The translations under genes were made by a program, and so were the position numbers. Positions 12,015 through 45,447 of a stretch of 48,602 bases of DNA are shown one piece after another. Numbering within the stretch: the stretch's first letter is position 1; every line of letters starts with the position of its first letter. Under the pieces are notes generated by a model. The model was not told where the DNA came from, did not search any database, and was given only the letters and a program-made list of their open reading frames with translations. Location of the stretch: the IMG/VR virus record IMGVR_UViG_3300014208_000011, positions 1 through 48,602 of that record. One strand, 5' to 3'. This DNA is from a virus (lineage: Duplodnaviria > Caudoviricetes).

Positions 12015-13172
12015 TTAGTCTCCTTTACAGTTTATTATTTGTTTTAGAGTATGTTCAACTTTTACTAAGTCTTTTGCCCATTCTATGGTTTTTTCAACAT
12101 CTTTGTATGCTCCTGGTATTTCGTCAATGAGAACACTCGATTCTCGGTATTCAATCCCTTCCATTGATTTCTTGAGGTCTTCCAAATTGAAAGTTTTTGA
12201 TGCTTTTTTTCGACTCATTTTTCGACCTGCGCCGTGCGGTGCAGAACAGAATGATTCTTCATTCCCAAGCCCTGAAACGATATAACTATTCGTTCCCATA
12301 GAACCAGGTATCATCGATTTCTTACCGATACTCGCTTCAATCGCTCCTTTTCTAGTTATCCAAGCATTACCTCCTAGGTGGTTTTCAATCTGTGTGAAGT
12401 TATGATGACAATTTATTCTTTCAACCTCAAACTCTGATTGATGTCCATTTTCTCCATAAACCGCGAAGCTAATATCTTTCAAAACCCTGTCCATCATCTC
12501 ATCTCGGTTTAACAGTGCGAAGTGCTGTGACCAGTGCAAGTCAGTGAGGTAATCATCAAACATTTTACTCCCGATCGGAAAATACGCTAAGTCTTTATCG
12601 GGTAAAGTTACGAACATATTTTCACATAAATCTTGTGCCTTTTTGATATAAGCGTTACCAACTTTATTTCCAACACCACGACTTCCGCTGTGAAGCGTAA
12701 CCCAAATAGTCTCTGTTTCGTCTACACATATTTCTATAAAGTGGTTTCCGCCACCAAGAGTTCCTAATTGTTCTTGCCAATTTCCTTTTACTTCTCCCGT
12801 GTGCGGTAAGGCTTCCAGTTCATCAATTCTTTTTTGAGCTGTTTCGGTTATTTTCTTATTGAACCTTCCCATACTCATAGGGACACTTTTTTCTATGCTT
12901 TCACGCAACTTTGCAAGGTCTCCAAGTTGTTCCTTTTTAAGATTCGTTTTCACAGCTATCATTCCGCATCCTATATCAACCCCGACCGCTGCAGGAATAA
13001 TTGCCCCCTGAGTAGCAAGAACGGTACCTACAGTAGAACCTTTCCCGTAGTGTACATCAGGCATAACCGCAATGTGCCGGAAGATGAAAGGCATTGAAGC
13101 TGTATTTTTAATCTGATTCTGCGCCTCAACTTCTATTTCTTCCCAAGGAATAAATGTTTTAATCTTCTCCAT
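12015..13172 (-). CDS. rtcB: RtcB family RNA ligase
   Basis: MPDVHYG, VGVDIGCG, GTLGGGNHFIE, LHSGSRG, CHHN, RKGA, IPGSMG, SAPHGAGR, DEIPGAYK and terminal KG motifs are all present. Confidence 0.96.
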   Translation of the reverse strand: MEKIKTFIPWEEIEVEAQNQIKNTASMPFIFRHIAVMPDVHYGKGSTVGTVLATQGAIIPAAVGVDIGCGMIAVKTNLKKEQLGDLAKLRESIEKSVPMSMGRFNKKITETAQKRIDELEALPHTGEVKGNWQEQLGTLGGGNHFIEICVDETETIWVTLHSGSRGVGNKVGNAYIKKAQDLCENMFVTLPDKDLAYFPIGSKMFDDYLTDLHWSQHFALLNRDEMMDRVLKDISFAVYGENGHQSEFEVERINCHHNFTQIENHLGGNAWITRKGAIEASIGKKSMIPGSMGTNSYIVSGLGNEESFCSAPHGAGRKMSRKKASKTFNLEDLKKSMEGIEYRESSVLIDEIPGAYKDVEKTIEWAKDLVKVEHTLKQIINCKGD

Positions 13173-24109: not shown

Positions 24110-24763
24110 ATGGGTAGAGCAACACAATTCAAGAACTTCATGGTAAAGCCAAGGACGCTCACCGCCGTTACCTCGCTTTCAGAAGCTGATTGCGGAAAGA
24201 CTATTTTCCTCAATTCAACAACTGAATTTGAAGTAACGCTTCCAAAAGTCAAAGCCGGTCTTAACTTCAATTTCGTCGTGAAAGCGGCTCCGTCGGGAGC
24301 AAGCTACACGATCGTTACGAACGAGGGAACTCCTTTGATGTTTGGTCAGGTGTTCACCACGGATGTCAACGCCGAGAATGACAGCGATCTCAATATTACC
24401 GCCGCTCAAAAATTCACGTTCGTGGATGGTGTGGCTGTTGTAGGAGATAGCGCGAAGTTTGTCAGTGATGGTACTTATTGGTATGTACAAGGGTTTTGTT
24501 CCGTCTATAACGGAGAAACAATCACTCTTTCACAATCAGTTTCACCTTCAGTGTCTCCTTCGGTCAGCCCGTCGGCATCTCCTTCGGTTTCTGTCTCGAT
24601 CTCGCCTTCGGTGTCTGTATCGATTTCACCGTCGATATCTCCATCGGTCTCGAAATCTATCAGTCCGTCGGTATCGACTTCACTCAGTCCGAGTGTCAGT
24701 CCTTCGGTGTCTGTATCGAAGAGTCCTTCGGTATCACCTTCGATTTCACCATCTGTTTCTTAG
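24110..24763 (+). CDS. Virion decoration-like protein (paralog B) with C-terminal (Ser-X)n tail
   Basis: Clear paralog of 23624-24034 plus a 77-aa Ser-alternating tail. Confidence 0.7.
   Translation: MGRATQFKNFMVKPRTLTAVTSLSEADCGKTIFLNSTTEFEVTLPKVKAGLNFNFVVKAAPSGASYTIVTNEGTPLMFGQVFTTDVNAENDSDLNITAAQKFTFVDGVAVVGDSAKFVSDGTYWYVQGFCSVYNGETITLSQSVSPSVSPSVSPSASPSVSVSISPSVSVSISPSISPSVSKSISPSVSTSLSPSVSPSVSVSKSPSVSPSISPSVS
24530..24760 (+). repeat. (Ser-X)n / SPS repeat tract 1 (77 aa)
   Basis: Ser at every second residue with mixed Ser codons. Confidence 0.95.
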
Positions 24764-25651: not shown

Positions 25652-26305
25652 ATGTCAAGAAATATAATAATAGCAGAAAATTGTTTGATGCTTGATGGAT
25701 CCGGTGACTATGTGGTCACTCCGATTACCCCTGGAGTTGGACCTCTTTCTGTCGCTGTTTGGGTAAAGAGATATGCCACAGGTGGGGTAAATAATGACAG
25801 AATATTTGATTGTTTTGATGGCGCTCCAACAAATGGGTTCGCCTTGAGACAGCCGAACGGTGGAAAAGGTTTTAATTTTGATGTGTATAACAACGGTGCA
25901 TTGCAAGCAACTCCAGCAACAGGCGATTTGGAATTGAATCGCTGGTATCACATCGTTTGTACTTTCGCTACTAATTCAGTAAAGATATATGTTAATGGAG
26001 TGCAAGTTGGTGCAACAGATACATCGTGTACTTTGACACAAACGACAAGTGTTTTGCGAATTGGTACCCGATTAGGAGAAGCTGCCTCTTATTTCTTTGG
26101 GATGCTTAAAGACTTCCTGTATTACGACAGAGTTCTTACCCTGACAGAAATAGAAAATCTCTATTACAGTAGAACTATTCCAACTACACCAGTCATTTAC
26201 TACAAGTTCAATAACGACGCATTGGATTCCTCTGGTAATGGTAACAATGGAACACTCACCGGAGCAACATACGGTGTATTTAATTCACCTAGATTATCAG
26301 TGTAA
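25652..26305 (+). CDS. LamG/concanavalin A-like lectin domain protein
   Basis: LDGSGDYV, SVAVWVK, WYHIVCT, IYVNG, YDRVLT..EI and DSSGNGNNGT motifs. Confidence 0.88.
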   Translation: MSRNIIIAENCLMLDGSGDYVVTPITPGVGPLSVAVWVKRYATGGVNNDRIFDCFDGAPTNGFALRQPNGGKGFNFDVYNNGALQATPATGDLELNRWYHIVCTFATNSVKIYVNGVQVGATDTSCTLTQTTSVLRIGTRLGEAASYFFGMLKDFLYYDRVLTLTEIENLYYSRTIPTTPVIYYKFNNDALDSSGNGNNGTLTGATYGVFNSPRLSV

Positions 26306-26994
26306 TGTCCAGAAGTAATAAAGCACTAAATTTCGCAAGTGACGCTGCCAATAGGGTTGTTATTACAGATGCATCAATTCTTCGACCAGATGCGACAAAT
26401 ATCTTCTCGTGGTGTAATTGGTTCTATTTGTTCAGTACAAACAATAATTTACTACCAAGGTTTGTAGAAAAAGGTGCTCATTACACCTGTATTATGGGTG
26501 ACCAAACAGTGGGGACAGTCCATAACAGAGTAGCTCTGGAAGTTCAAGCGACTGGAACAGTTGTAGAATACTGGGGGTCCACGAAGATTCAGCCGAACAG
26601 ATGGTATCACATTGCCACCACATTCAATGATGGTGAGTGCCAGCACTACCTGAACGGAGTTAAAGAATCTATGGTAGTCATAAATAACGCTCTTCCGTAC
26701 CAGTCTCCACTAGAAACCTCCGCTGGTTCTGATTTGAAGATAGGAAACAGCTCCGCTAACACGAGAAATCCAAATGGGTATATATGCAATGTCACTCAAC
26801 ACAACGTAGCACTGACACAAGAAGAAGTCATAACAATAATGAATGGGGGCAATGTTTCAAGAGGATTAGTTGGAAAATGGAACGTAGACGAGGGTACTGG
26901 TGCAACTGTTGCTGACTCAAGTGGAAATGGTAACAATGGCACGATAACTGGTGCTGTGTGGGAAACATTTGTAAATACGAGAAACTCTGTATAA
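26305..26994 (+). CDS. LamG/concanavalin A-like lectin domain protein (tandem paralog)
   Basis: WYHIATT, YLNG, NVALTQEEV and GLVGKW..DEGTG..VADSSGNGNNGT motifs. Confidence 0.88.
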   Translation: MSRSNKALNFASDAANRVVITDASILRPDATNIFSWCNWFYLFSTNNNLLPRFVEKGAHYTCIMGDQTVGTVHNRVALEVQATGTVVEYWGSTKIQPNRWYHIATTFNDGECQHYLNGVKESMVVINNALPYQSPLETSAGSDLKIGNSSANTRNPNGYICNVTQHNVALTQEEVITIMNGGNVSRGLVGKWNVDEGTGATVADSSGNGNNGTITGAVWETFVNTRNSV

Positions 26995-27062: not shown

Positions 27063-27671
27063 ATGGAAAGAATAATTTGTTTTACGGCGATTTGTGGAGA
27101 TAAAGACAAGGCGCGGACTGATATTCGCGTCTTTTCTGAATACGACAAGTTTAAAAGTTCAGTCTATAACGCGAAAATAGCGAAGATACTGGCACATAAG
27201 TTCCTTGATTGTGATATATCCGTGTGGATGGACGGAAACATCTCCTTAAACGTTCCTGTCGAGCAAGTCGTAAAGGAGTGGCTCGGAGACGCGGATATAG
27301 CCTTTTTCAGACACTATAAGAGCAAGGATTTGGATTGGGAGAACCGTTGGATAAAGTATAAGTTTGGAAGACACTCGGAAGTAGCAAAAGAAGCAGAGAA
27401 ACAGTACGAAAGGTACAAGCCTCTAAACATCAGAAAAGAAGAGCTAGGAATGGGAGGATTTATCATAAGGAGGCATACTCCGTTAGTTGAAGCCTTTAAT
27501 AACGAATGGTGGTCAGAAATTTGCGCTTTTGGAGAGCGTGACCAGATGAGTTTACCAGTAGTTTTGAGAAAGTTCCCAGAATTGAAGGTGAACAGAATAA
27601 ACCTTGACATAAAGCAGAACGAGTTTCTCACTTATAGTCCGCACAACTACGATGTTGCAATTTCTCAGTAA
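27063..27671 (+). CDS. Glycosyltransferase-like protein (DUF616/TOD1-MUCI70 type)
   Basis: FTAICG.KD, KILAH, SVWMDGN, IIRRH, FNNEWW and RDQMSL motifs. Confidence 0.75.
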   Translation: MERIICFTAICGDKDKARTDIRVFSEYDKFKSSVYNAKIAKILAHKFLDCDISVWMDGNISLNVPVEQVVKEWLGDADIAFFRHYKSKDLDWENRWIKYKFGRHSEVAKEAEKQYERYKPLNIRKEELGMGGFIIRRHTPLVEAFNNEWWSEICAFGERDQMSLPVVLRKFPELKVNRINLDIKQNEFLTYSPHNYDVAISQ

Positions 27672-27753
27672 GTATGCTAAGATAAATATATAATTAACTT
27701 GTCACTGGAAACGGGCACCTTTCTGACAAGTTGGGTGCCCCTTTTTGGGAAAA
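27655..27753 (+). promoter_or_regulatory. Promoter plus pseudoknot-like leader motif of an HNH gene, copy 2
   Basis: TTGCAA-17 nt-TAAGAT; AACTTGTCA/TGACAAGTT interleaved with GGGCACC/GGTGCCC, then TTTTTGGGAAAA. Confidence 0.65.
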
Positions 27754-27758
27754 CTAAT

Positions 27759-28343
27759 ATGTCTAAGCATTCTTATTTTCAGAAGAAAAAATGTATAGTG
27801 TGCAATAAGCTAATTACAAATGAAGCAACTAACTGCAAGAAACACAGACCAGTAACCTGGGCTAGTAAGGTTAAAGAGTCTCTAGCAAGAGAAGATGTAA
27901 AAGATAAAATGCGAGTTGCGAAAAAAGGAAAAACTTATGACAAAGCTAACAGTTGGAAAGGTGATAAGTGTGGTTACGCTGCAAAGCATGTTTCAGTTAA
28001 GTCACAAGTAGGAAATCCTAAGAAATGTAAGCACTGTGGAAAGGTTGGAGAGAAAGCCAACGGAAGGTGGAACGTGCACTGGGCTAATGTAAGTGGAGAG
28101 TACAAGAGAGAAGCAGAAGATTACATAGGTTTGTGCAGAAAGTGTCACTATTGGTTTGATAGAAGTAGAAAACCGTATACTCCAAAATGGAGAGTGATGA
28201 TTGAGTTCAATGGGGAGAGAAAAAGCTTAACTGAGTGGGCTAACTACATTGGAATCAGTAAAAGTACGCTAAGCGCAAGAATTAATCGGTATGGGATTCC
28301 ATTGGAAAGGGCGCTAAGTAGCAAGAAACAGCATGACTGTTAA
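27759..28343 (+). CDS. Free-standing HNH-like homing endonuclease with C-terminal HTH
   Basis: WKGDKCGYAAKH, CKHC, HWAN, YIGLCRKCH and SLTEWA..GI..STL..R motifs. Confidence 0.8.
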   Translation: MSKHSYFQKKKCIVCNKLITNEATNCKKHRPVTWASKVKESLAREDVKDKMRVAKKGKTYDKANSWKGDKCGYAAKHVSVKSQVGNPKKCKHCGKVGEKANGRWNVHWANVSGEYKREAEDYIGLCRKCHYWFDRSRKPYTPKWRVMIEFNGERKSLTEWANYIGISKSTLSARINRYGIPLERALSSKKQHDC

Positions 28344-28507
28344 TACTATGAATATAATCAAGCAGTAAATAAATTTAAAACATATGAAAACTCTCGCGTG
28401 GATAATGTTAATAGGATTGCTTCTGTGGTTGGTAACGATATTTCCAATACTCTTGCTTATTGGTGCTATTTGGATGTTAATCGCTTATCTTTCATCGGAA
28501 TACTAGT

Positions 28508-28993
28508 ATGGTAAAGCTGTACCGGGATGATGACCCGAACGTGTATACCGATGCTTTTGAGTTCAAGAAACTTCATCAGCATTTTATCGACCGCAAAGAA
28601 GTCCACACGGTAGCGGTGATTATGAAGGACTTGTGGGAGAATCACGCGCTTTTTTACTACCTAGCTACTGCTCCCTATCTTGAAATAGGCTTGCATGGTT
28701 GGGAACATAAGGATTACAGCCTTCTATCGTATGAAGAGTGCTATGAAGACCTTAAGAAAGCAAAGGAATACTGGCAAACAAATTCTATCCGAATGGTAGG
28801 ATATACCAAGCCAATAGCCACTTTCTTCGCACCATGGAATCATGAAGGAGAGAACATAAAGAAGGCTTGCAATGATCTATCCCTTGATTTTTGTAACGTA
28901 AAAAAAGGAGAATGGAACGGGAAAGATGTTCGGTCGTTTCACCATTGGTATTTGGAGCTTAATCCGCAGGATATTCCTAAATTGTTCAAATAA
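28508..28993 (+). CDS. Polysaccharide deacetylase-like (CE4/NodB fold)
   Basis: YRDDD, EIGLHGWEH, FFAPWN and FHHW motifs. Confidence 0.8.
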   Translation: MVKLYRDDDPNVYTDAFEFKKLHQHFIDRKEVHTVAVIMKDLWENHALFYYLATAPYLEIGLHGWEHKDYSLLSYEECYEDLKKAKEYWQTNSIRMVGYTKPIATFFAPWNHEGENIKKACNDLSLDFCNVKKGEWNGKDVRSFHHWYLELNPQDIPKLFK

Positions 28994-29076
28994 TATGAAA
29001 ATATTCCTGTTTATTTTAATGATGGTATCTGTATGTATAACAAGTGGTTTAATTGGTGCTCAATTATACAAAATGT

Positions 29077-29898
29077 ATGAAAATCCTTCTTGTACACAAC
29101 AATAAAATGCGTTGGGCGGATACCTTCCGCGCCGAGGAGTTCAAGAAACACTGGACTACTGACGAAGTCGATATCGTCAACCGATGGAATCTTCCTGATG
29201 GATCAAAATACGATGTCATTCACTTTCTGTACAGCGGTGGAATCACGAAATCAAAGGACTATATCCTGAAAAACAAGGAGAAGGTGTTCACGTCTTTGGC
29301 GTCTCAAAGGACATTTGATTTTATGTTTGACACGAAAGAAGACTTGATCGAGGTGTACTCGCAAACACGGTGCTGTGTGGCTCAAAACAGACAACTGCTA
29401 GAGAGTTACAAGAAAATTGTCGGAAAGGACAATGTTGTGTACATACCAAACGGCGTTGATGAGAATCTGTTTAAGCCTGAGTTCGTTGCCGGATTCGTCG
29501 GAGCGAAGGACAGTTGGGAGCATAAAGGGTACCATATAGCGAAACAAGCCTGTGATGATTTGGGAATACGATTTGAAGTCGCCAAAGAGCACGATTATGA
29601 CCACGAAACTATGCCTGAGTTTTACAAGAAAATAGATGTTTTGCTGATACCGAGTTTAAGCGAAGGATGCCACAACCCAACGCTTGAGGCTTTGGCTATG
29701 AATATACCGGTCATTTCTACGGATGTCGGTATCGCGGACGAATTGGATGGTGTTTTTTTAGTGGAACGAAACATTCCTATGATAAAAGAAGGTTTACGAT
29801 TCTTTAAAGATAGGTCGCAAATACTCGGGAATGAACAGGTACTTGAAGAATATACCTGGAAAAATATATCCGATCAATATAGAAAGCTTTATGTGTAG
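29077..29898 (+). CDS. Glycosyltransferase family 4 (GT-B)
   Basis: YIPNGVD, KG, PSLSEG...LEALAMNIPVISTDVG and YTWK motifs. Confidence 0.9.
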   Translation: MKILLVHNNKMRWADTFRAEEFKKHWTTDEVDIVNRWNLPDGSKYDVIHFLYSGGITKSKDYILKNKEKVFTSLASQRTFDFMFDTKEDLIEVYSQTRCCVAQNRQLLESYKKIVGKDNVVYIPNGVDENLFKPEFVAGFVGAKDSWEHKGYHIAKQACDDLGIRFEVAKEHDYDHETMPEFYKKIDVLLIPSLSEGCHNPTLEALAMNIPVISTDVGIADELDGVFLVERNIPMIKEGLRFFKDRSQILGNEQVLEEYTWKNISDQYRKLYV

Positions 29899-31096
29899 TT
29901 TTTTGGCGTACAAGCACAAAGGGAACAACGAACTTATCCAAAAAAGGGGTCCGGATTTTACCAACACCATTACGGTAAACGGTCTCAATTTTACGCATAA
30001 TCTTTTAGCGGTAACGGGTGTGCCAACAGCACAACCGTTTGTAGACAAAGAGATAGTAGTTGTTTACTCAGGAGAGATATACAATCATCCATTTGCAAAA
30101 AGCGATGGAGAGAATATCATACCTCTGTATAAGAAGCACGGACTCCTGTTCGCGAATGAACTTGATGGTGAGTTCGCTATCGCTCTATACGACTTCAAAA
30201 CGAATATAGCGCTCTTCGTTACGGATAGGTTCGGAACCAAACCGTTGTGGCGAAGCGGAATCGAGTGCGCCAGCTATCGAAGCGGAGTCGGAGGCAGAGA
30301 GATTGAACCGAACACCGTTGAATGTGTGCAAATTTCGACGGAGAAGGAGCTTTTCAGACAAAACTACCACCAATGGGACTGGAACCAGTATAAAGACTCC
30401 TACGACGATTTTTTGAGTGCTTTTGAACGTTCCATACAGAAGCGAGCAACCCGACGCTGTTTTCTAGGATTATCGTCCGGATATGACTCGGGTGCCATCT
30501 GTCATGAACTCGTCAAACAAGGAGCAAACTTCAAGGCTTTCTCCATATTGAACAATGAGAACATCAATGTTATTCTTCAAAGAGGAAAGACTGCTTATGA
30601 GTTCGATAAGATAACCGTGTCAAAGGATGAAGACTTGCTCAAAGACGTGGAAGATATAGAGTACATACGAGCTGGAGAGAAGTCGGTCAAAGAAGACAAA
30701 GCGTCCTACGGTTTGGCATCTATATGCAAGCAGGCGAAAAGAGAGGGAAGGAAAGTATATCTGAGCGGACAGGGCGCGGACGAGATTATAGGAGATTATA
30801 AGCTCTATCCGAAACAAAGTGCTTTCAAAGGGATATTCCCTAAAGAATTGAAAGAGTGGGAAAGCTTTTCCGGAGGACTGCAAAGAGATTACATCCACAA
30901 AGAAGAACATGTCGCCGGTGCATACGGCATAGAGACACGGTATCCGTTCCTTGATACCGACGTCGTCCAAGAGTTTCTCTGGCTCAAACAGGAACTTAAG
31001 AACAGGAATTACAAAGCACCGATCTATGAGTATTTAATAAAAAATCATGTCCCATTTGATAAAGAAGTTAAAAGAGGATTCCGACCTTTCGCATAA
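29891..31096 (+). CDS. Asparagine synthetase B-like glutamine amidotransferase
   Basis: N-terminal Cys2 (MCSF), RGPD, QP, GEIYN, LDGEFA, DRFGTKPL, LSSGYDS, LSGQGADE and RYPFLD motifs. Confidence 0.9.
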   Translation: MCSFLAYKHKGNNELIQKRGPDFTNTITVNGLNFTHNLLAVTGVPTAQPFVDKEIVVVYSGEIYNHPFAKSDGENIIPLYKKHGLLFANELDGEFAIALYDFKTNIALFVTDRFGTKPLWRSGIECASYRSGVGGREIEPNTVECVQISTEKELFRQNYHQWDWNQYKDSYDDFLSAFERSIQKRATRRCFLGLSSGYDSGAICHELVKQGANFKAFSILNNENINVILQRGKTAYEFDKITVSKDEDLLKDVEDIEYIRAGEKSVKEDKASYGLASICKQAKREGRKVYLSGQGADEIIGDYKLYPKQSAFKGIFPKELKEWESFSGGLQRDYIHKEEHVAGAYGIETRYPFLDTDVVQEFLWLKQELKNRNYKAPIYEYLIKNHVPFDKEVKRGFRPFA

Positions 31097-31928
31097 GGTG
31101 ATCATATTTGGCGGTGAAGGATTCGTCGGGAAACACATGAGAAAGTCCATAGACGGGTATGTTTATGATTTGGTAAACGGAGACGATATCCGTGATCGGT
31201 TCAAGCTCGACCGTCTTTTCGAATCGGAAGGATTCGACACGGTCATAAACCTAGCCGCGCGCGCAGGAGTAAGAAGAGGTGAAGATTTCCCGGAAGAATA
31301 CTTCTCTACGAACGTTATAGGACTCAACAATCTTATCGAGGTATCGGAGAAATACGGTGTCAAAAAGTTCGTTCATTTCTCAAGCTCTTCGGTGTTCGGC
31401 GTTCAAGGAGAAAACGGAACCAAAGAAGACGAAGAAAAGAAACCGAAATCTATCTATGGCATTACAAAACTTGCTGGAGAATTACTGCTTGAAAAGTCGA
31501 GACTCGATTATGTTATCGTGCGACCGTTCACGATCGTCGGAGAGAACGGGAGAAAGGAAATGGTCGTTTATAAGTGGCTCAATCAGATCAAGTCCGGAAA
31601 GAAAGCGTCTTTTTACGGAGACGGGACGACGTATCGAGGATACACGTATGTCGAAGACATCGTGGACGCCGTGAGACTGATACTTGCAAACAAATCAGTG
31701 AAACGCGAGACGTTCAACATCGGAGGAAATTCCATAGTGACACTCGAAGAATTATGGCATGTATTCAAGGAAATTTACCCTCATGCCGAAAGAGAGATGC
31801 TTCCTATGCCAGTTACCGATCAGGTAGGAAGTTTCGCAGATACATCCAAGTTAAAAGACATTATCGGATGGTTCCCTAGAACGGACGTCAAGCAAAAGAT
31901 TAAGGAAATAATAACAGAAGAATTATGA
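31047..31928 (+). CDS. NAD-dependent nucleotide-sugar epimerase/dehydratase
   Basis: GGEGFVG, NLAARAGVR, FSSSSVFG, YGITK and R.YTYVEDIV motifs; UDP-glucuronate epimerase-like. Confidence 0.9.
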   Translation: MSHLIKKLKEDSDLSHKVIIFGGEGFVGKHMRKSIDGYVYDLVNGDDIRDRFKLDRLFESEGFDTVINLAARAGVRRGEDFPEEYFSTNVIGLNNLIEVSEKYGVKKFVHFSSSSVFGVQGENGTKEDEEKKPKSIYGITKLAGELLLEKSRLDYVIVRPFTIVGENGRKEMVVYKWLNQIKSGKKASFYGDGTTYRGYTYVEDIVDAVRLILANKSVKRETFNIGGNSIVTLEELWHVFKEIYPHAEREMLPMPVTDQVGSFADTSKLKDIIGWFPRTDVKQKIKEIITEEL

Positions 31929-32725
31929 TAAAGCTATCAGTTGTGATTCCTTCATACAAGGATCCGTATCTCAACAAGACTATAATGGATCTCTTGGAAA
32001 ACTCCGAACTCGGAGACGCTCTTGAGATTGTGGTTGTGTGTGATGGCTATTGGTGCACTCCTATCGACGATAAACGCGTTCGTTACGTTCATTTGGGACA
32101 GAATCGAGGCATGAGAGGAGCTATCAATGCCGGAGTCGCTGTCGCTCGCGGTGAGTTCTTCATGAGATTGGATGAGCACTGTAGTTTCGGTCAAGGGTTC
32201 GACAAAATTCTTACCGACGCATGCAAAGAGAACGAGGTCATGACTGCAGTACGATATTTCTTGAACCCTGAGACATGGACGGTGATGGACTTGGAGCCTG
32301 TCTATCATGAGAGATTGGATATCGTGAATGTGAGCGAAGGAGTTCGAAAGTTTCACGGAAAAACATGGAAGAAACGCGACGAGGAGCAGAAAGATGTGAT
32401 GGTTTCAGAGACTCTCGCCATGCAAGGATCGATGTGGATCGCTCATCGTGAGTTTTTCCTGAAGACAGTCGGGGAGTTGCAAACAGAAGGCTATGGTCCA
32501 TTGATTCAGGACTCGGTGGAAGTGTGCATGAAATACTGGAATGCTGGTGGAAGACTCATGCTTAATAAAAACACTTGGTTCGCACACAAGCACCGCTCAT
32601 TCAAACGCACGCACAACAACGGAACCGCTGAGAATCCGGCAAAGTGTGAAGATGGATACACCTACGCTTTGCAACAGTGGGAAAAGTATTATACTGATGT
32701 AATTCGCCCTAAGTGGAACATATAA
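31925..32725 (+). CDS. GT-A glycosyltransferase, ppGalNAc-T-like paralog 1
   Basis: LSVVIPS, LDEHC (DxH), QGSMW and KYWNAGGRL...WFAH motifs. Confidence 0.8.
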   Translation: MIKLSVVIPSYKDPYLNKTIMDLLENSELGDALEIVVVCDGYWCTPIDDKRVRYVHLGQNRGMRGAINAGVAVARGEFFMRLDEHCSFGQGFDKILTDACKENEVMTAVRYFLNPETWTVMDLEPVYHERLDIVNVSEGVRKFHGKTWKKRDEEQKDVMVSETLAMQGSMWIAHREFFLKTVGELQTEGYGPLIQDSVEVCMKYWNAGGRLMLNKNTWFAHKHRSFKRTHNNGTAENPAKCEDGYTYALQQWEKYYTDVIRPKWNI

Positions 32726-32726
32726 T

Positions 32727-33431
32727 ATGGAACTCAAAGACCTCATTACGATATTTTATTGTTCAAGCAATCGTGAGAAGCCTGAATTCGAACAGCGGAT
32801 TATAGATAACATCCGAAAACATTGCGGTGACTTGCCTATCATTTCCGTGACGCAAAAGCCGATTGATTTCGGAACGAATATCTGTGTTGGTGATACTGTT
32901 GGAGTTTCAGGTTTCAACTTCTTCAAGCAATCCCTTATCGCTTTGCAGAATATCAAAACACCGTTTGCTTTGTCGTGTGAGGCAGACACGGTATATCCTC
33001 CGGATTACTTTACATTCGTACCTGAAAGACTGGATATGTGCTACAGGGACAAGAATCTCTTTGTAATGGGACAGCACAGGAATTACTTCTACAAAAAAGA
33101 AGAAGGAGCCACGCACGCGCAGATAGTCGGAACGGAATTCTACCGAAAAACTTTGGAAAAACTGTTCGAAGGAGAACCCGAATGGGATTACAATGAGGAG
33201 CAGAAGAATTTCCCGAAAGAAAAGTTCCATAAAAAAGGAGAGGACGTATTTAAAAAGGAAGAAATAGCATTTTACGAGACGGAAAACCCCGTTGTTCAGA
33301 TAAAAACAAGTCAATCAATGCGACATCACACACATAGCTCAAGGGTTCCTATTTATTCTCTCCCTTTTTGGGGTTCAGGAATGGATTTCAGAAAGAAGTT
33401 TTACGAATTAAGCACAGGTGAAAAACACTAA
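32727..33431 (+). CDS. Divergent GT-A-like protein
   Basis: IFYCSSN, ISVTQKPIDFG and CEADTVYP; N-terminal half is paralogous to 35863-36618. Confidence 0.6.
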   Translation: MELKDLITIFYCSSNREKPEFEQRIIDNIRKHCGDLPIISVTQKPIDFGTNICVGDTVGVSGFNFFKQSLIALQNIKTPFALSCEADTVYPPDYFTFVPERLDMCYRDKNLFVMGQHRNYFYKKEEGATHAQIVGTEFYRKTLEKLFEGEPEWDYNEEQKNFPKEKFHKKGEDVFKKEEIAFYETENPVVQIKTSQSMRHHTHSSRVPIYSLPFWGSGMDFRKKFYELSTGEKH

Positions 33432-33432
33432 T

Positions 33433-34167
33433 ATGAAACAACTCCTTATATTCCTTCACCCTTCGAAAGGTTTCAACGACGAAACGGAGAAACTGGCGAA
33501 GATACAGATCGACAACAGCTTCGAACTCGGATGGAAAGCCGAAGATACTATCGTCATTACCAATTTTCCATACGAGTACCGAGGTGTAAAGGCTCTCGAA
33601 GTCGGTGATGAGAACTTCAGCCGTATCATTCCTCAGTGTACGAAGATTGACACTGTCTGCACGCTTTTCGATCAAGGATTTTTCAAGGAAGGAGAACTAT
33701 ACTGGGCGCATGATTTCGACGCTGTGCAAAATGCTGTTATCACGGAAGAAGAACTCGAACTCGGTGAAAGAATGGGATTCACCGATTACGGACGACACGA
33801 CAGGTGGAATGGCGGGTCATATTTTTTCAGAAGCACGGACGGAGACTTTTTCAGGAAGACAAAGAAACTCATGTATGACAGGAATATCAACGAGGAAGAC
33901 GCCTGGATGGTGATGATGAAAGAAGAGCCTGAATATATGGAAAAGAACTTGAAGCGTCTCAACATTTCATATAACTTCGGTATCAAACAGATGGAATTGT
34001 GTTATAATAAATCTATCAAACCGGTCAAGGTACTCCACTTTCATCCTGACAGGGTGTATCGAGGATGGGGACGTGCTATGGAGATAGTGAAAGGAAAGAA
34101 TGAAATCAATCAAGTGCTTATGCTCGAAAGACTGATACAAATTTTTAAGAAGCATGGTTATGAATAA
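33433..34167 (+). CDS. Glycosyltransferase-like protein (GT8-like)
   Basis: HDFD (DxD), WNGGSYFF, LNISYN and VLHF motifs. Confidence 0.6.
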   Translation: MKQLLIFLHPSKGFNDETEKLAKIQIDNSFELGWKAEDTIVITNFPYEYRGVKALEVGDENFSRIIPQCTKIDTVCTLFDQGFFKEGELYWAHDFDAVQNAVITEEELELGERMGFTDYGRHDRWNGGSYFFRSTDGDFFRKTKKLMYDRNINEEDAWMVMMKEEPEYMEKNLKRLNISYNFGIKQMELCYNKSIKPVKVLHFHPDRVYRGWGRAMEIVKGKNEINQVLMLERLIQIFKKHGYE

Positions 34168-34735
34168 CGCTATCGAAGACTTAAATAACCTTCCCGTAAA
34201 AAGTCGCCGAAGAGTATGGCGCGCGTTTATGGAAAAGTATGATTGCCAAAAGATAGCCGAAATAGGTGTGTTTCAAGGACAAAATTTTGAGTTAATGGTT
34301 GCGCATAATCCTGAACTCGCCGTAGGAGTGGATGTATGGCGCGAGGACGGCATCCCCGGGCAAAATGATGCCGATTTACCGCAGGAAGAATTGGACGCCA
34401 TGTACAGGCATTTAGAGCATAAATACATCAACAACAAAAACGTCAAACTTATCCGAGATTACACGGTAAAAGCGGCTGAATTATTTGAAGACGAATCTCT
34501 GGATTTGATCTACATCGATGCAAACCATACGTATGAAGGCGCAAAAGCGGATATTGAAGCTTGGTATACAAAAGTTAAGAAAGGCGGTTTTGTAACTGGA
34601 GATGATTATTGGGATCGTATGTCACCAAAAAGACATGTACGATTCGGAGTGGTACGAGCTGTCAATGAATTTGCAGAAAAGAACGGATTAACGGTACACC
34701 CCTTGACACTGCACGGGTGGGTTATACTAAAATGA
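34160..34735 (+). CDS. Class I SAM methyltransferase (Methyltransf_24 type)
   Basis: AEIGVFQG, GVDVW, LDLIYIDANHTYE and VKKGGFVTGDDY motifs. Confidence 0.88.
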   Translation: MNNAIEDLNNLPVKSRRRVWRAFMEKYDCQKIAEIGVFQGQNFELMVAHNPELAVGVDVWREDGIPGQNDADLPQEELDAMYRHLEHKYINNKNVKLIRDYTVKAAELFEDESLDLIYIDANHTYEGAKADIEAWYTKVKKGGFVTGDDYWDRMSPKRHVRFGVVRAVNEFAEKNGLTVHPLTLHGWVILK

Positions 34736-35232
34736 TCATAGGACACGGAGACATTTCATCAGTACTTCCAGAAAGAGATGACCTCTTATTCTTTGCCAGT
34801 GGCGTTTCTAATTCAAGAGAAGATAGAGAAAGCGAGTATACAAGGGAGATAGATTTACTGCACGCTCAAGATAGAGATAAACACATCGTGTATTTCAGCT
34901 CTCTGTGTGTTTTCGATAAAAAAAGTCGATACTCACAGCATAAAAGACGAATGGAATTGATGATATCTATCATTTTTGAAACATATACCATTATAAGAAT
35001 TGGCAATATAACATGGGGGAGCAACACCAACACGATCATAAACTTCCTGAAAGACAAAATACAGAAAGGAGAGCAGTACACCGTCGAAGATGTTTATCGT
35101 CATATTCTTTCCAAAGAAGAATTTCTGTACTGGATAGACAGGATACCATCATGGTCGTGCGAAATGAATATCCCGGGAAAAATGATGATGGTATCGGAAA
35201 TAGTTGAATCCATTAAAAAAGGAGAATTATGA
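34732..35232 (+). CDS. Short NAD-dependent epimerase/reductase-like protein
   Basis: MIIGHGDI, FFASGVSNS, VYFSS and YSQHK motifs. Confidence 0.7.
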   Translation: MIIGHGDISSVLPERDDLLFFASGVSNSREDRESEYTREIDLLHAQDRDKHIVYFSSLCVFDKKSRYSQHKRRMELMISIIFETYTIIRIGNITWGSNTNTIINFLKDKIQKGEQYTVEDVYRHILSKEEFLYWIDRIPSWSCEMNIPGKMMMVSEIVESIKKGEL

Positions 35233-35861
35233 ACAAAAAAGACTTAAAACCTGGATCGCCTTATTGGATACCAAACGTCAATCGAGCGGATTTGCCGGAG
35301 TTCTTCAAGTCTCTAGGATTCAAGAAAGGCGTCGAGATTGGGGTTTCTTGGGCGCAGAACATTATCGGATACTGTGAGGCAGGGTTCGAGATTTACGGCG
35401 TTGATCCGTGGGACGCTCACACCGATGAAGATGAGTTTCGTAAACTGGTCAGTATTGACGGAAAATACGGAAGTACGGTTGACGGCGTGTACCGCTTAGC
35501 AAAAGAACGCACGGAGAAATATCCGAACTGCAAACTGATGAAAATGACATCTATCGAGGCTCTGGATTATTTCCCGGATAGGAGTTTGGATTTTGTGTAC
35601 ATAGACGCAAACCACTCTTTCGGATATGTGGCTATGGATTTGATGAAATGGAACAGAAAGGTAAAAAAAGGTGGAATCATAGCCGGGCATGACTACTTTT
35701 CTCACAATCCTAGAACCCAAAGACAACTGAGAGGTATTGGAAATATCGTCGAGGCTTTCGCAAAGACATACGATTTCAAAGATTGGTATGTATTAGGAAG
35801 CAAAGAACGAAAAGAAGGAGAGGACAGTGAGCTATCGTTTATGTTTATTAAACACTGGTAA
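35229..35861 (+). CDS. Class I SAM methyltransferase (Methyltransf_24 type), second copy
   Basis: VEIGV, GVDPW, LDFVYIDANHSF and VKKGGIIAGHDY motifs. Confidence 0.88.
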   Translation: MNKKDLKPGSPYWIPNVNRADLPEFFKSLGFKKGVEIGVSWAQNIIGYCEAGFEIYGVDPWDAHTDEDEFRKLVSIDGKYGSTVDGVYRLAKERTEKYPNCKLMKMTSIEALDYFPDRSLDFVYIDANHSFGYVAMDLMKWNRKVKKGGIIAGHDYFSHNPRTQRQLRGIGNIVEAFAKTYDFKDWYVLGSKERKEGEDSELSFMFIKHW

Positions 35862-35862
35862 T

Positions 35863-36618
35863 ATGCTTAAATCAGCCATTTTTTATACAAGCAATAAAAT
35901 AAACAACCCCATACGAGGCGCTGTGAGGCGTTTTATTCAAGAGGCTGGCATCCATGTAACCTCTGTGTCGCTCAAAACCATTCCGTTTGGTGATAAGCGT
36001 ATCGTTTTGGAAGGACGTCAGCCAAGCTACCCCACCTATCTCTATCAGATTGTGACAGCTTTGGAAAACGCTCCAGGGAAGTATGTCTTCTTTTGTGAGC
36101 ATGATGTCCTCTATTCAAAATCACATTTTGACTTTACACCGCCTAAAGACGATGTTTTTTATTACAATGAGAATGTGTGGCGGTGGAAATTGCACGATTT
36201 CAAACTAGTAACCTATGAAAAGATGAGACCTCTTTCGTGTCTTGTTGTTAATCGAGAGTTTGCATTAGAGCATTATAAACGAAGGGTAAAGGCTATGGAG
36301 GATATGGGGATGGATGAGTTCCGGAGCAGAGAGCCAAGAATGGGACGAGTATGGGGGTATGAGCCCGGGACTAAAAAGAAACGAAATGGAGGATTTTCCG
36401 ATGATGTGTGTGAGATGTTCCGATCCGAACTGCCCAATATAGACATACGACATAATAGAGCTTTCACGAGTCCGAAATGCGATAAGGTTGATTTCAAGCA
36501 TGTTCCGGATAATTGGCAAGAAGTCAGTGCGGATGAAGTCCCCGGATGGGATTTGCGAGATATTTTTAAACAAGGGATGGAAAACCATTCGATTCATTAT
36601 AAAAAGTTTTATGAATAA
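35863..36618 (+). CDS. Divergent GT-A-like protein
   Basis: IFYTSN, SVSLKTIPFG, VFFCEHDVLY and IDIRH motifs. Confidence 0.65.
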   Translation: MLKSAIFYTSNKINNPIRGAVRRFIQEAGIHVTSVSLKTIPFGDKRIVLEGRQPSYPTYLYQIVTALENAPGKYVFFCEHDVLYSKSHFDFTPPKDDVFYYNENVWRWKLHDFKLVTYEKMRPLSCLVVNREFALEHYKRRVKAMEDMGMDEFRSREPRMGRVWGYEPGTKKKRNGGFSDDVCEMFRSELPNIDIRHNRAFTSPKCDKVDFKHVPDNWQEVSADEVPGWDLRDIFKQGMENHSIHYKKFYE

Positions 36619-37588
36619 TATAGCACTCTCAATTCTCATTCCAAGTCGCAACGAAAATTTCCTTGCGAGAACCATACAGGACATTCTCGAACACAGTGAA
36701 GCAAACATTGAGATTATAGCTTTACTGGACGGTCAATGGGCGAATCCGGCTATTCCGCAACATCCTCAAGTGAATGTCATCTTTGTACCGGAGAGTATCG
36801 GACAAAGAGCAGGAACTAGTCTTGCGTGTAAACTGGCACAAGGAAAGTATATTGCCAAACTTGACGCCCACTGTGCTTTTGACCAGGGCTGGGATAGGAA
36901 AATGATTGAGTTTATGGAAAAGCACGGAGATGATACGGTGGCTGTGCCCATAATGCGCAACCTGTGGGCGTTTGATTTTAAATGTTATCATTGTGGATGG
37001 AAGAAATATCAAGGTCCGACACCGACAGAATGCGGTGCTTGCGGGAAAAAAGACAAAATACGCAAGAAAATGATGTGGGTAGGGAAGCATAACCCTCAAA
37101 GTTGGAGTTTTTGTTTCGACAATGAACCGCATTTCCAGTATTTCGAGGACTATAAACACCGCCCTGGAATACGAGACAAAGCACAAAAAGAAGGGTATAG
37201 TGAAACTATGAGTCTTCAGGGAAGTTTTTGGATGATGAGCCGTGAGAAGTATTTGGAGTATATCCCGACACGAGAGCATTTCGGAAGCTGGGGAAATGAA
37301 GGACTTGAAATAGCGTGTCTCGGATGGCTGACAGGAGGAAGAGTGCTTGTCAATCACGAAACGTGGTATGCCCATTTATTCAGAACTCAAGGCGGTGATT
37401 TCGGATTCCCCTATCACCAATCGGGACGGGAAGTGGACAAAACCAAGAATACTGTGTGGGAGTTTATCAAACAAGGAAAGTTACCGAATCAGAAACATCC
37501 TGTCTCGTGGCTGGTGGAAAAGTTTGCACCGGTTTCCGGGTGGAGTGAAGAAGACTTGCAAAGATTGAAGAAAGAGGAGAAGATATAG
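36611..37588 (+). CDS. GT-A glycosyltransferase, ppGalNAc-T (GT27)-like paralog 2, with Zn-ribbon insert
   Basis: LSILIPSRNE, LDAHC..GW and WGNEGLEIACLGWLTGG...HLFR motifs; insert CYHC..CGAC. Confidence 0.85.
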   Translation: MNNIALSILIPSRNENFLARTIQDILEHSEANIEIIALLDGQWANPAIPQHPQVNVIFVPESIGQRAGTSLACKLAQGKYIAKLDAHCAFDQGWDRKMIEFMEKHGDDTVAVPIMRNLWAFDFKCYHCGWKKYQGPTPTECGACGKKDKIRKKMMWVGKHNPQSWSFCFDNEPHFQYFEDYKHRPGIRDKAQKEGYSETMSLQGSFWMMSREKYLEYIPTREHFGSWGNEGLEIACLGWLTGGRVLVNHETWYAHLFRTQGGDFGFPYHQSGREVDKTKNTVWEFIKQGKLPNQKHPVSWLVEKFAPVSGWSEEDLQRLKKEEKI

Positions 37589-37633: not shown

Positions 37634-38629
37634 ATGGCTATAGCATTAGTACAACATGCGGCGGCAGGAGGAACAGCGGATACTGTCACCACAAGCGGAG
37701 TAGATACTACCGGTGCTAATTTAATTGTAATTGGTGTCACTTTTGACACCACCGCCGCTAGAACGATCGCCGACAATAAAAGTAATACTTGGACACCCTT
37801 AACTGCGACCACCAGTACTTCTGCTGGTGCTCAAATCTATTATTGTCTTGGGCCCACAGTTGGAACAGGTCACACGTTTTCAAATACCGGATCTGGAAAT
37901 TACAGCACCATATTCATGTCGGCTTATAGCGGAGTGCTGGCTAGTCTAGCATTTGACAAAGAGAATGGAGCGACCGGTTCCGGAACAACTCTCGCTACCG
38001 GAAGTGTCACTCCGGCAGTTGATGGAGAACTTTTGGTTACTTTTTTTGGATTCAATCAGGCAGGAGCTCCCGTGAGTATCAATAGCGGATTTGCTGAAAC
38101 GGATACAGAAATTGAGTTTTCATCAGGTAATCATTACGGTGGAGCGATGGCTTATTTGGTGCAAACTACCGCGGCGGCTATAAACCCCACTTGGACTCGA
38201 ACCAATACCCAAACTAACTCTGCCAGAATTGCGACCTTCAAACCAGTAGCGGGTTCATTTTCTCCCTCAATCTCACCGAGTATCAGCCCATCTATCAGTC
38301 CATCACGAAGCCCCTCCGTATCAGTATCAATTTCACCAAGTCGTTCACCATCAGTAAGCCCGAGTGTCTCGGTTTCTCTCTCTCCATCCGCAAGCCCGTC
38401 GGTATCAATATCCGTTTCACCTTCCATATCACAATCCCTCTCTCCGAGTGAAAGTCCTTCGCCGTCTTTGTCGCAATCTATTTCACCAAGTCTCAGTCCG
38501 TCTGTTTCTCCGAGTATGGGTCCGATTTATCCAGTGAGCAGAATTGACTATACAAGAATACATAGTTATACTAGGGACATACAACCGCGAGTTCATATTG
38601 ATTCTATTATTCCACGATCGCATTTATGA
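37634..38629 (+). CDS. Virion protein with internal (Ser-X)n tract
   Basis: T/G/A-rich beta domain, then 87 aa of Ser-alternating repeat and a short C-terminus. Confidence 0.7.
   Translation: MAIALVQHAAAGGTADTVTTSGVDTTGANLIVIGVTFDTTAARTIADNKSNTWTPLTATTSTSAGAQIYYCLGPTVGTGHTFSNTGSGNYSTIFMSAYSGVLASLAFDKENGATGSGTTLATGSVTPAVDGELLVTFFGFNQAGAPVSINSGFAETDTEIEFSSGNHYGGAMAYLVQTTAAAINPTWTRTNTQTNSARIATFKPVAGSFSPSISPSISPSISPSRSPSVSVSISPSRSPSVSPSVSVSLSPSASPSVSISVSPSISQSLSPSESPSPSLSQSISPSLSPSVSPSMGPIYPVSRIDYTRIHSYTRDIQPRVHIDSIIPRSHL
38255..38515 (+). repeat. (Ser-X)n / SPS repeat tract 2 (87 aa)
   Basis: SFSPSISPSISPS...SPSLSPSVSPS. Confidence 0.95.
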
Positions 38630-41466: not shown

Positions 41467-42660
41467 ATGTATACACTTTACGATATAGGATTTGATAGTT
41501 TCTTGACAAAAGGAGATATTTTACAAGGTATCAGTTTTGCTTCTGCTGAAAAGATAGAAAGCGCACTTCCAAACAAATTCACCGATAATGTCCGACCATC
41601 AGAGATAAAATCAGGAGAACTCTCGGGAAATCTCAATGTTGTCAAAGGGTATCTGCAAAGTTCAAACTTTCAGACAGGTGTCAACGGTTGGAAGTTCGAT
41701 GCCGTAGGGAACCTTGAAGCCAATTCTGGTACATTCAGAGGCTCATTGTACGCGACCGCAGGAAATATCGGAGGTTGGGTCATTGATGCGAACGGTTTGT
41801 ATTACAACGGATCGGGAACGCCCAATATCCGCACATCAGCCACTGTAGGTTCGGGAGCAAATGGTGTTATCCTTGATAACGCCGGAATAAGAGTGTATGA
41901 CGCTATTCTCGGTGTGGTGGTCAATCTTCCGTCCGACGGATCGGCACCGACATTCTCATCAGGGGAAATCAATGAGACAACATTTGAAATCAGTACGAAT
42001 GCGGTACTTCGAACATCGGAAACAGCAGGAGACGGAACAGCAAACAGTGCGGGCGTGCTCATCAACAATTCGGGATTCTACGGTATGGGAGCCAATCAAA
42101 CACCGGCAACCGCCAATGTCCGTATCCTCAATGACGGTAATGCTTATTTTACCGGAGATATATCGGCATCAGGCATATCAGGAAGCGATATTGTCGGTAG
42201 CAGTATTACCGGATCGACCGTAACTGGAGGACTGGTGCGAACTGCCGAAACAGGGAGAAGAATCGAGATGGATTCATCAGGTATCACACTGTTATCGGGT
42301 GCTACGGCTGGAAAATACGGCACTTTTAAATACGGAGCAAGACGATACGGTACGGGAGCTTTGGCAAAAATAAACAACACTTCACTTCGAGTTCCTTTTT
42401 ACATCATGGAAGAGCAGACAGTCGGGGATTTGCATCTCTACAACAGAAGCGCTGAACCGACCGGAACGGCGGAAGTTGGAGACTTAGCAGTCATCAGTGG
42501 AAACCTCGCACTGTGTACCACGGCCGGAACACCCGGAGTGTGGACAACGCTTGGAATGCCCGGTGCTGTTGTCTCCTCACTCTCTCCTTCAATCAGTCCA
42601 TCAGTTTCCCCGTCTGTTTCTCAATCAATAAGCCCAAGTATCAGTCCTTCGGTTTCATAA
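41467..42660 (+). CDS. Tail fibre-like protein with C-terminal (Ser-X)n tail
   Basis: QSSNFQTGVNGWK, GNIGGWVI and Gly-periodic shaft; ends SLSPSISPSVSPSVSQSISPSISPSVS. Confidence 0.7.
   Translation: MYTLYDIGFDSFLTKGDILQGISFASAEKIESALPNKFTDNVRPSEIKSGELSGNLNVVKGYLQSSNFQTGVNGWKFDAVGNLEANSGTFRGSLYATAGNIGGWVIDANGLYYNGSGTPNIRTSATVGSGANGVILDNAGIRVYDAILGVVVNLPSDGSAPTFSSGEINETTFEISTNAVLRTSETAGDGTANSAGVLINNSGFYGMGANQTPATANVRILNDGNAYFTGDISASGISGSDIVGSSITGSTVTGGLVRTAETGRRIEMDSSGITLLSGATAGKYGTFKYGARRYGTGALAKINNTSLRVPFYIMEEQTVGDLHLYNRSAEPTGTAEVGDLAVISGNLALCTTAGTPGVWTTLGMPGAVVSSLSPSISPSVSPSVSQSISPSISPSVS
42577..42657 (+). repeat. (Ser-X)n / SPS repeat tract 3 (27 aa)
   Basis: Ends with SPSISPSVS-stop, identical to tract 1. 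Confidence 0.95.
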
Positions 42661-45024: not shown

Positions 45025-45447
45025 ATGTCAAAAAAACCCCCACATTTTTATGGAGAAGAGCATCCCGGTTGGAAAGGCGACAATGCTGGTAAATTAGCAA
45101 TGCATCATTGGGTAATCAATAGAAAGGGGAAGCCTAGTCTTTGTGAGCATTGTAAAAAAACAGATAAGAAAAAGTATGAGTGGGCTAACGTTGACCACGA
45201 ATATAAGAGAAACTTAGAAGATTACATAAGGCTTTGTACCTCCTGTCACAGAAAGTACGATATGGAAAATAACAATTATACTTCTGGTATTGAAAAAGTC
45301 AATGCTAGGGCGCAAAGGTTCCTATTCCAAGGAGAAAACCTGACTGTCCGAGAATGGGCTGAAAGATTAGGCATTGAGAGACGGACTCTTGCTTACAGAT
45401 TACAGGTAAAATTGTTGACAGTAGAACAATTTTTTAATAAGAAATAA
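45025..45447 (+). CDS. Free-standing HNH-like homing endonuclease, paralog of 27759-28343
   Basis: WKGD, HHWV, CEHC, EWAN, EDYIRLCTSCH and TVREWAERLGI motifs. Confidence 0.8.
   Translation: MSKKPPHFYGEEHPGWKGDNAGKLAMHHWVINRKGKPSLCEHCKKTDKKKYEWANVDHEYKRNLEDYIRLCTSCHRKYDMENNNYTSGIEKVNARAQRFLFQGENLTVREWAERLGIERRTLAYRLQVKLLTVEQFFNKK

Follow-up and report, generated by a model that had tools for sequence, protein, structure and literature searches.

A phage glycosyltransferase resembling polypeptide GalNAc-transferases and its linkage to serine-tract proteins

The gene at 36611..37588 of IMG/VR record IMGVR_UViG_3300014208_000011, the complete genome of an uncultured tailed phage that was analysed over its whole length (48.6 kb, positions 1 to 48,602; hereafter the window), encodes a glycosyltransferase, paralog A, whose nearest solved relatives by sequence and by predicted fold are the polypeptide N-acetylgalactosaminyltransferases (ppGalNAc-Ts or GalNAc-Ts) of family GT27, and whose homologs in other phages are linked to genes for proteins with long tracts of alternating serine, (Ser-X)n. 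Participation of paralog A in glycosylation of these tracts is very probable, and we favour, at a probability of about 0.55, the reading that it is the enzyme that initiates on the peptide. The window carries a 123-nt direct terminal repeat and is classed as 100% complete.

Sequence and predicted fold of paralog A

A sequence search of the PDB returned 23 matches at E<=1, the first 14 of which were ppGalNAc-Ts (best E 1e-5), and a profile built from 113 close homologs placed nine ppGalNAc-Ts at the head of its PDB list (best 2.4e-8). The AlphaFold model of paralog A (predicted local distance difference test, pLDDT, 93.7) led to the same enzymes: ppGalNAc-Ts made up 27/27 of the Foldseek matches listed (best E 1.5e-16), and VIA gave Z scores of 25.8 to mouse GalNAc-T1 (root-mean-square deviation 3.1, 273 residues aligned) and 24.4 to Toxoplasma T3; the best GT2 enzyme reached 18.2. 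A neighbouring protein of the cassette (family 2, described below), folded by the same procedure as a control, yielded a flat list of GT-A and nucleotidyltransferase folds with a best Z of 12.4 and with GalNAc-T1 at 10.2. The preference for ppGalNAc-Ts in both sequence and fold searches indicates a likeness of paralog A that exceeds chance. An earlier annotation made from the DNA letters (the first-pass annotation) had read signature motifs of GT27 enzymes in the gene and had named best structural matches to polysaccharide GT2 enzymes as contrary evidence; in the searches with the model ppGalNAc-Ts, and not polysaccharide GT2 enzymes, rank first.

Two other family assignments were rejected. 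A generic polysaccharide GT2 is disfavoured by DxH in place of DxD, by the lack of an Asp (the catalytic residue of xED in GT2) in the WGNQG/WGNEG stretch of most homologs, by the short span of the Pfam match (the N-terminal GT2 module PF00535, residues 7-120, E 6.6e-17) and by the fold preference for GT27. The one other Pfam match, to GT60, is sub-threshold: PF11397 scores 14 bits against a cutoff of 21, where true phage members reach 215-222 bits, and the profile similarity of paralog A to one of these members spans only the N-terminal 103 columns. Because a phage GT60 protein finds no sequence match in the PDB, searches of that database cannot rank GT60 against GT27; in a viral fold search with paralog A, phage proteins annotated 'Glycosyltransferase, GlcNAc' (N-acetylglucosamine) formed the second tier (E 2e-12; models TM 0.51-0.61). 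Searches of PHROGs and NCBIfam returned nothing informative for paralog A.

The motifs KLDAHCAFDQGW and GSWGNEGLEIACLGWLTGGRVLVNHETWYAHLFR, the CxxC..CxxC insert and the absence of a ricin lectin domain, all described in the first-pass annotation, were found at the positions claimed (coordinates, Pfam; Table 1). D85, H87 and H255 are each present in 85/85 viral homologs; the set of 85 viral loci was gathered with patterns that include the W-G and HxFR motifs (FDxxPxF lies outside those patterns) and, without de-duplication, contains near-identical phages. The four-Cys insert is optional in the family (pattern in 23/76 cellular homologs), and from the C-terminal motif to the end of paralog A there are 67 residues. 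No ricin domain was detected by Pfam in paralog A or in the 55 longer or fused homologs scanned, and neither a membrane anchor nor a stem was found in paralog A, whose catalytic domain begins at residue 5-7 and whose top 19-residue hydropathy is 0.76. Several homologs (P0123, P0149, P0129, P0130, P0136, P0159) carry inteins or GIY-YIG/NUMOD3 homing-endonuclease fusions, which marks the gene as a target of mobile elements.

Published GalNAc-T2 work names D224, H226 and H359 as metal residues, G308, G309, G332, E334 and R208 as donor residues, and F280, W282, W331, F361, R362 and K363 as peptide residues. Human T2 numbers were taken as mouse T1 numbers plus an inferred offset of 15, and the residues were compared by sequence alignment rather than from model coordinates. 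On this basis paralog A retains equivalents of the metal triad, G308, W331, G332, F280, F361 and R362 (the pairs with mouse T1 are listed in Table 1), and in a profile of the C-terminal half F169-D170...F175-x-Y177 pairs with FDWNLQFSW of Drosophila PGANT9. Other positions differ from GalNAc-T2 and weigh against the proposed role: R208 is replaced by Thr, A307 by Gln, G309 by Ser, N335 by Gly, W282 by Asn/Ser and K363 by Thr, and the E334-equivalent, a Glu in the window gene, is Gln in 77/85 viral and in 76/76 cellular homologs, the latter from a search whose pattern permitted Gln or Glu there. The Glu of WGNEG makes the likeness to WGGEN stronger by eye but is atypical, being present in 4 of the 85 viral homologs. 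Since the donor-reading positions differ, UDP-GalNAc is not established as the donor; an N-acetylhexosamine (HexNAc) donor is plausible, with UDP-GalNAc not favoured over others. As far as its residues can be read, then, paralog A is built like a GalNAc-T catalytic domain from which the donor sugar cannot be deduced. It falls outside GT27 proper, in which an anchor and a lectin domain are expected and several donor-reading residues differ, and outside GT60 by profile score, while it would work like a peptide transferase of these two families.

Serine tracts as candidate acceptors

Paralog A is, as first annotated, the last enzyme gene of its cluster and stands directly before the gene of a Ser-X tract protein (45 nt to 37634-38629); this adjoining protein was confirmed, but the window encodes three tract proteins and not one (Table 1). 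The three tracts contain 95 Ser in total, written in a mixture of TCN and AGY codons. Across 182 tracts in viral loci, the alternating positions hold 16,837 Ser vs 28 Thr, and the spacer residues are 39% Pro, followed by Leu, Val and Ile. The mixed codons and the choice of Ser over Thr point to maintenance of the tracts at the protein level; a DNA-repeat artefact was rejected on the same codon mixture and on shuffling, in which 0/2000 shuffles per protein yielded a 24-aa tract. A Pro at +3 is reported to be favoured by GalNAc-Ts, with T2 favouring one at -1 as well (bioRxiv 2020.06.25.171371), and P-S-x-S-P, which offers both, occurs 20 times in the three window tracts. The tract proteins are probably virion parts: acceptor 2 has a paralog in the product of 23624, for which there is a weak match to a virion-protein PHROG. 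That this placement draws on gene position and weak matches counts against the proposal. In relatives, unbroken Ser-X alternation extends up to 1386, 1072 and 1972 residues (L010, L142 and L244, respectively).

Linkage of the enzyme to serine tracts

The link between enzyme and Ser-X tract proteins made in the first-pass annotation holds in three separate comparisons, begun from the enzyme, the tract and the capsid. Starting from the enzyme, a tract of at least 24 aa was found in 74/85 viral loci, and it lies downstream in 45/49 loci with at least 4 kb of flank. Ten of the 11 tract-less loci have less than 2.3 kb downstream; the other, L082, shows no tract in 9.2 kb of downstream sequence, a genuine miss that stands against the linkage. 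Starting from the tract, a pattern scan gave 134 stretches, and 78 loci on 73 contigs with flanks were used while 54 loci without flanks were left out: the enzyme family was within reach on 13/17 contigs with pure-Ser tracts, 0/27 with Thr or mixed tracts and 0/29 with short or no tracts. Three of the four Ser-tract misses are records 14-30% complete, and the fourth (L130) was left out of the search. Starting from the capsid, coverage sufficed in 19 of 55 loci, the 36 others being too short to use; once the window was added, 6 carried cassette and tract and 14 carried neither, both states occurring in both main clades of the capsid tree. Enzyme and repeat pattern were absent genome-wide from three capsid relatives that are 94-100% complete, whereas the window has 12 pattern matches, and an ortholog of 37634 in L316 (55% identity over 208 residues) has no tract and no accompanying cassette. 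Searches for loci with single proteins returned 3 loci for 40014 and 4 for the capsid gene.

The Fisher p-values for the linkage (4.6e-8 and 2.6e-5) are upper bounds on the evidence, since related phages are not independent and the values overstate it. The cassette is accompanied by five separate capsid clusters; these, together with the presence of both states in both capsid-tree clades, weaken rather than remove an origin of the linkage in a single lineage. L307, which had seemed to be a cassette without a tract, was rejected because its match is an ordinary GT2 with NND and GGGED. At L307:12756-18962, in a capsid relative that lacks the cassette, a gene for a 1321-aa (Ser-Gly-X) repeat protein precedes an ordinary GT2 fused to a methyltransferase and a further GT-like gene, another repeat/enzyme pairing in the same place. 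A true GT60 gene (PF11397, E ~1e-64) is present in 3/28 viral loci with Thr-rich or mixed (T-P-T-X) tracts (L097:8996-10252; L106:7429-8685, minus strand; L161:1-1275, minus strand), and these loci are possibly a parallel Thr system that uses another peptide-transferase family.

Which enzyme may add the first sugar

The first-pass annotation had named the DxH enzyme at 36611..37588 as the initiating peptide O-glycosyltransferase. The DxH enzyme was confirmed, and the proposed role agrees with the GT27 likeness and the tract link, but a second DxH enzyme, which had gone unmentioned (paralog B at 31925-32725, 26% identity), is near-universal and itself resembles ppGalNAc-Ts, and paralog A is not established over it. 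Paralog A is the best candidate because it alone keeps the F280-, W331-, F361- and R362-equivalents: FDxxPxF, GxWG and HxFR are found in 79, 79 and 80 of 85 A proteins and in 0, 2 and 2 of 87 B proteins. Its usual single copy and its fixed place in the cassette, described below, also speak for it. Several findings weigh against this choice. The collecting patterns account in part for the W-G and HxFR counts; by protein clustering B was found in 53/57 well-covered loci, and at least two of the four misses (L007, L017) do carry B; and the ppGalNAc-T profile match is stronger for B (1.2e-14) than for A (2.4e-8), the lower match of A arising because the insert breaks its alignment. In a first partial Mantel test (68 loci), moreover, tract composition correlated with B (r 0.29, p 0.001) and not with A (0.05, p 0.23), and after splitting by subtype the picture was mixed (55 B1 loci, A 0.17, p 0.009; 46 B2 loci, B2 0.12, p 0.03, and A 0.05).

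The alternative that survives best, although we consider it less likely, is that paralog B or a family-2 gene adds the first sugar and paralog A a later one to the glycopeptide. B has DxH, QGS and a C-terminal His and matches ppGalNAc-Ts along its whole length, it is nearly universal in well-covered viral loci, and its subtype tracks tract make-up, with less Pro and Ile and more Ala in B2-only loci (57 vs 26 loci). It lacks the F280-, W331- and F361-equivalent patterns, however, its copy number varies and it has at least two subtypes, as for elongating enzymes, and locus L065 has a tract with no B within 10 kb upstream. Family 2 is absent from 4/57 well-covered loci, including L054/L333, and the smallest cassette (L333, in which the capsid region and the tract genes enclose no more than A, B, a methyltransferase and an epimerase) argues against both family 2 and the GT4 gene as obligatory initiators.

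That the cassette instead modifies a host surface glycan, a host protein or phage DNA, with the tracts as unmodified spacers linked by position only, is improbable. DNA and host serotype are known targets of phage glycosyltransferases (PMC12619734), the methyltransferases, epimerase and amidotransferase of the cassette are typical of polysaccharide loci, and cassettes of the same type occur in cellular genomes. Against this, cassette and tracts are jointly present or absent across several unlinked carrier genes, the orthologous carrier in L316, a phage without the cassette, has lost its tract, none of the cassette genes of the window was seen to be a membrane, flippase or polymerase gene, and the closest folds to paralog A are peptide transferases.

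GtfAB, the initiator of serine-rich repeat (SRR) adhesins, bears the family label GT4 and has a GT-B fold. Least probable of all is initiation by the GtfA-like GT4 gene 29053 or by a host enzyme, with both DxH enzymes extending, for although the GT4 gene is present in the window and the alternating Ser recalls SRR proteins, to which GtfAB adds the first GlcNAc (PMC7948813), a GT4 of the window type was found in 5/57 well-covered viral and 3/79 cellular loci (with a six-sequence profile that unrelated GT-B genes could escape) and is absent between the capsid and tract gene in L333.

Proposed pathway and its meaning

With paralog A as the initiator, the soluble enzyme would transfer the first sugar from a nucleotide-sugar to serines of the (Ser-X)n tract proteins that the phage itself encodes, D85, H87 and H255 holding what would be a divalent metal, by a transfer that is probably retaining, as in GT27 and GT60. 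The extended tract may lie on a surface of F169, W227, F257 and R258, where P-S-x-S-P sites would present Pro at -1 and +3. No clear membrane segment was found in the enzyme or tract proteins of the window set, on which ground glycosylation is proposed to precede or accompany assembly and to take place in the cytoplasm of the host. To paralog B, the methyltransferases and both family-2 genes would fall the second serine class, or else the extension and methylation of the glycan (one hypothesis has A and B both acting on the peptide, one per serine class), and the product would be stiff, sugar-coated extensions on head and tail.

A wider proposal can be put forward tentatively, as a possibility well short of even odds: that an undescribed prokaryotic sister clade of GT27, in phages and Patescibacteria, initiates a mucin-type, serine-specific O-glycosylation in the cytoplasm, that A and B divide the serine classes of S-P-S-X, that the tract is a portable tag for any head or tail protein, and that the clade keeps the lectin-free ancestral state of animal GalNAc-transferases. 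A large prokaryotic and viral clade with a likely acceptor adjoining would bear on the origin of mucin-type glycosylation; if the proposal is true, phage virion glycosylation is not limited to single sites but includes dense mucin-like tracts, which may imitate fibres on the host surface, and the clade is a possible source of small soluble serine-specific transferases for glycoengineering.

Comparison with known systems

According to PMC7185993, DxH occurs only in GT27 and GT60, two families that initiate on Ser/Thr of peptides, and ppGalNAc-Ts are stated in PMC6994419 never to have been found in bacteria. Paralog A shares with the GT27 ppGalNAc-Ts (mouse T1, 8v9q/1xhb; human T2; Toxoplasma T3, 8uhv) a predicted catalytic fold of ~275 residues, DxH with a C-terminal His, the W331-, G332-, G308-, F280-, F361- and R362-equivalents and Ser/Pro-rich candidate acceptors. 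It differs from them in having no transmembrane anchor, stem or ricin lectin domain, in its four-Cys insert, in its changed donor-reading residues, in an identity of 14-22%, in candidate acceptors that are almost purely Ser and in being encoded by phage and bacterial genes. The GT60 polypeptide alpha-GlcNAc-transferases (PF11397) likewise have DxH and no lectin domain, and soluble members are known (PMC8724618), the difference lying in the low PF11397 score and the N-terminal reach of the profile similarity given above.

In mycobacteriophages (Che8 and relatives; Freeman et al. 2023), phage-encoded glycosyltransferases also act on virion proteins; the glycans are reported on the C-termini of capsid and tail-tube proteins (PMC12619734, PMC11256854) and not on long repeat tracts of accessory proteins. 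Glycosylation of serine repeats is known from GtfAB systems (PMC7948813, PMC12355684), and the SRR glycoprotein GspB resembles the phage arrangement in placing serine-rich repeats beside a cytoplasmic glycosyltransferase cluster. There, however, GtfAB initiates and export proceeds via accessory Sec (PMC7948813), whereas the phage core is GT-A with Pro-rich spacers and no secretion genes were seen in the phage cassette. A literature search, to which subscription papers were mostly out of reach, found no description of this enzyme-tract system.

The cassette and its distribution

Paralog A closes a series of eleven sugar- and methyl-handling genes (27063 to 37588) within the particle operon (Table 1); the terminase gene lies at 16377, a portal-like gene at 18115 and the major capsid gene at 22614. 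Conserved in the 85 viral loci is a core with 85 open reading frames (ORFs) for A and 87 for B, together with family 2, at 157 ORFs spread over 75 loci, and methyltransferases, at 92 over 70 loci. In 79/84 cases A stands at the end of the core, and in 76/80 loci it is single-copy. Each sugar gene of the upstream block has homologs in 3-8 of the 85 loci, the range being 4-8 for the GT4, epimerase, amidotransferase and MUCI70-like genes. Family 2 had no match in Pfam, PHROG or NCBIfam, and its confident model shows a divergent GT-A/nucleotidyltransferase fold that has an ExD motif; it is possibly a new glycosyltransferase family or a GtfB-like partner. Paralog A is fused to family 2 in 40/79 cellular genes.

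Table 1. Coordinates of paralog A, its motifs, the predicted acceptors and the cassette genes in the window.
Feature	Position	Strand	Remarks
Paralog A, GT27-like GT-A enzyme	36611..37588	+	ATG at 36611, stop ends 37588; 325 aa
K-x-D85-A-H87-C motif, KLDAHCAFDQGW, residues 83-94	36857..36892	+	aligned with D209/H211 of mouse GalNAc-T1
Four-Cys insert, C125-x2-C128 and C141-x2-C144	36983..37042	+	predicted zinc ribbon
F169-D-x-x-P-H-F-Q-Y177	37115..37141	+	aligned with GalNAc-T segment F-D-W-N-L-x-F-x-W (F280 region)
W227-G228, E233, W239, H255-x-F257-R258 in GSWGNEGLEIACLGWLTGGRVLVNHETWYAHLFR, residues 225-258	37283..37384	+	mouse T1 W316, G317, E322, W328, H344, F346, R347
Predicted acceptor 1, 331 aa	37634..38629	+	(Ser-X) tract 38255-38518, 88 aa, 44 Ser
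Predicted acceptor 2, 217 aa, two genes past major capsid gene	24110..24763	+	C-terminal tract 24518-24757, 80 aa, 38 Ser
Predicted acceptor 3, tail-tip-like, 397 aa	41467..42660	+	C-terminal tract 42577-42654, 26 aa, 13 Ser; PF09327 E 0.028, below cutoff
Paralog B, second GT27-like enzyme (D-E-H)	31925..32725	+	without insert, W-G and HxFR residues
Family-2 gene a	35827..36618	+	likely start ATG 35860; divergent GT-A/nucleotidyltransferase fold with ExD; 8-nt overlap with paralog A
Family-2 gene b	32727..33431	+	member of family 2
Methyltransferase PF13578	34154..34735	+	Pfam E 1.6e-14
Methyltransferase PF13578	35229..35861	+	Pfam E 2e-13
Accessory gene	33418..34167	+	weak nucleotide-diphospho-sugar transferase match, E 0.024, below cutoff; homologs in 32/85 viral loci
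Variable upstream block	27063..31928	+	MUCI70-like GT 27063, HNH 27699, deacetylase-like 28508, GT4 29053, amidotransferase 29831, NAD-dependent epimerase/dehydratase 31047

Of 4928 candidates, 4418 proteins belong to the family of paralog A, with 328 clusters (50% identity) at E<=1e-30, and no tblastn match of paralog A was obtained in 50,697 annotated phage records. The 79 cellular loci, counted with the window's own record excluded, bear 45 Patescibacteria titles, 27 Gammaproteobacteria/Pseudomonadales titles, 5 without label and 2 archaeal; the Gammaproteobacteria/Pseudomonadales labels (L244, L229, L224 and others, one on a 938-kb chromosome) may be unreliable. A tract is present in 49/79 cellular loci and in 36/44 of those of at least 15 kb. 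Along a tree built from 146 A proteins there are 11 changes of the cell/virus label, where shuffles give 48.6, and the window gene stands among the viral ones. The description of paralog A as a 'viral counterpart' of mucin initiation enzymes was therefore too narrow: the cassette is frequent in Patescibacteria genomes, which makes it a prokaryotic system and not only a viral one. A Patescibacteria host for the phage is our guess. The window's own record (L218) carries the bin title Sphingomonas; the phage G+C is 35-46% and the cassette relatives are mostly Patescibacteria, so that it is probably misbinned.

Other features of the genome

A search of sequencing runs for the window gave no RNA dataset among those listed. 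Three HNH-type homing endonuclease genes lie inside the particle operon (21956-22510, 27699-28343 and 45025-45447), and a tandem pair of concanavalin-A-like (Laminin G_3) genes at 25652-26994, between the first tract gene and the cassette, may encode glycan-binding virion proteins. The early region contains, on the minus strand at 12015-13172, a gene for an RtcB-type RNA ligase (PHROG 1075, E 1.3e-145).

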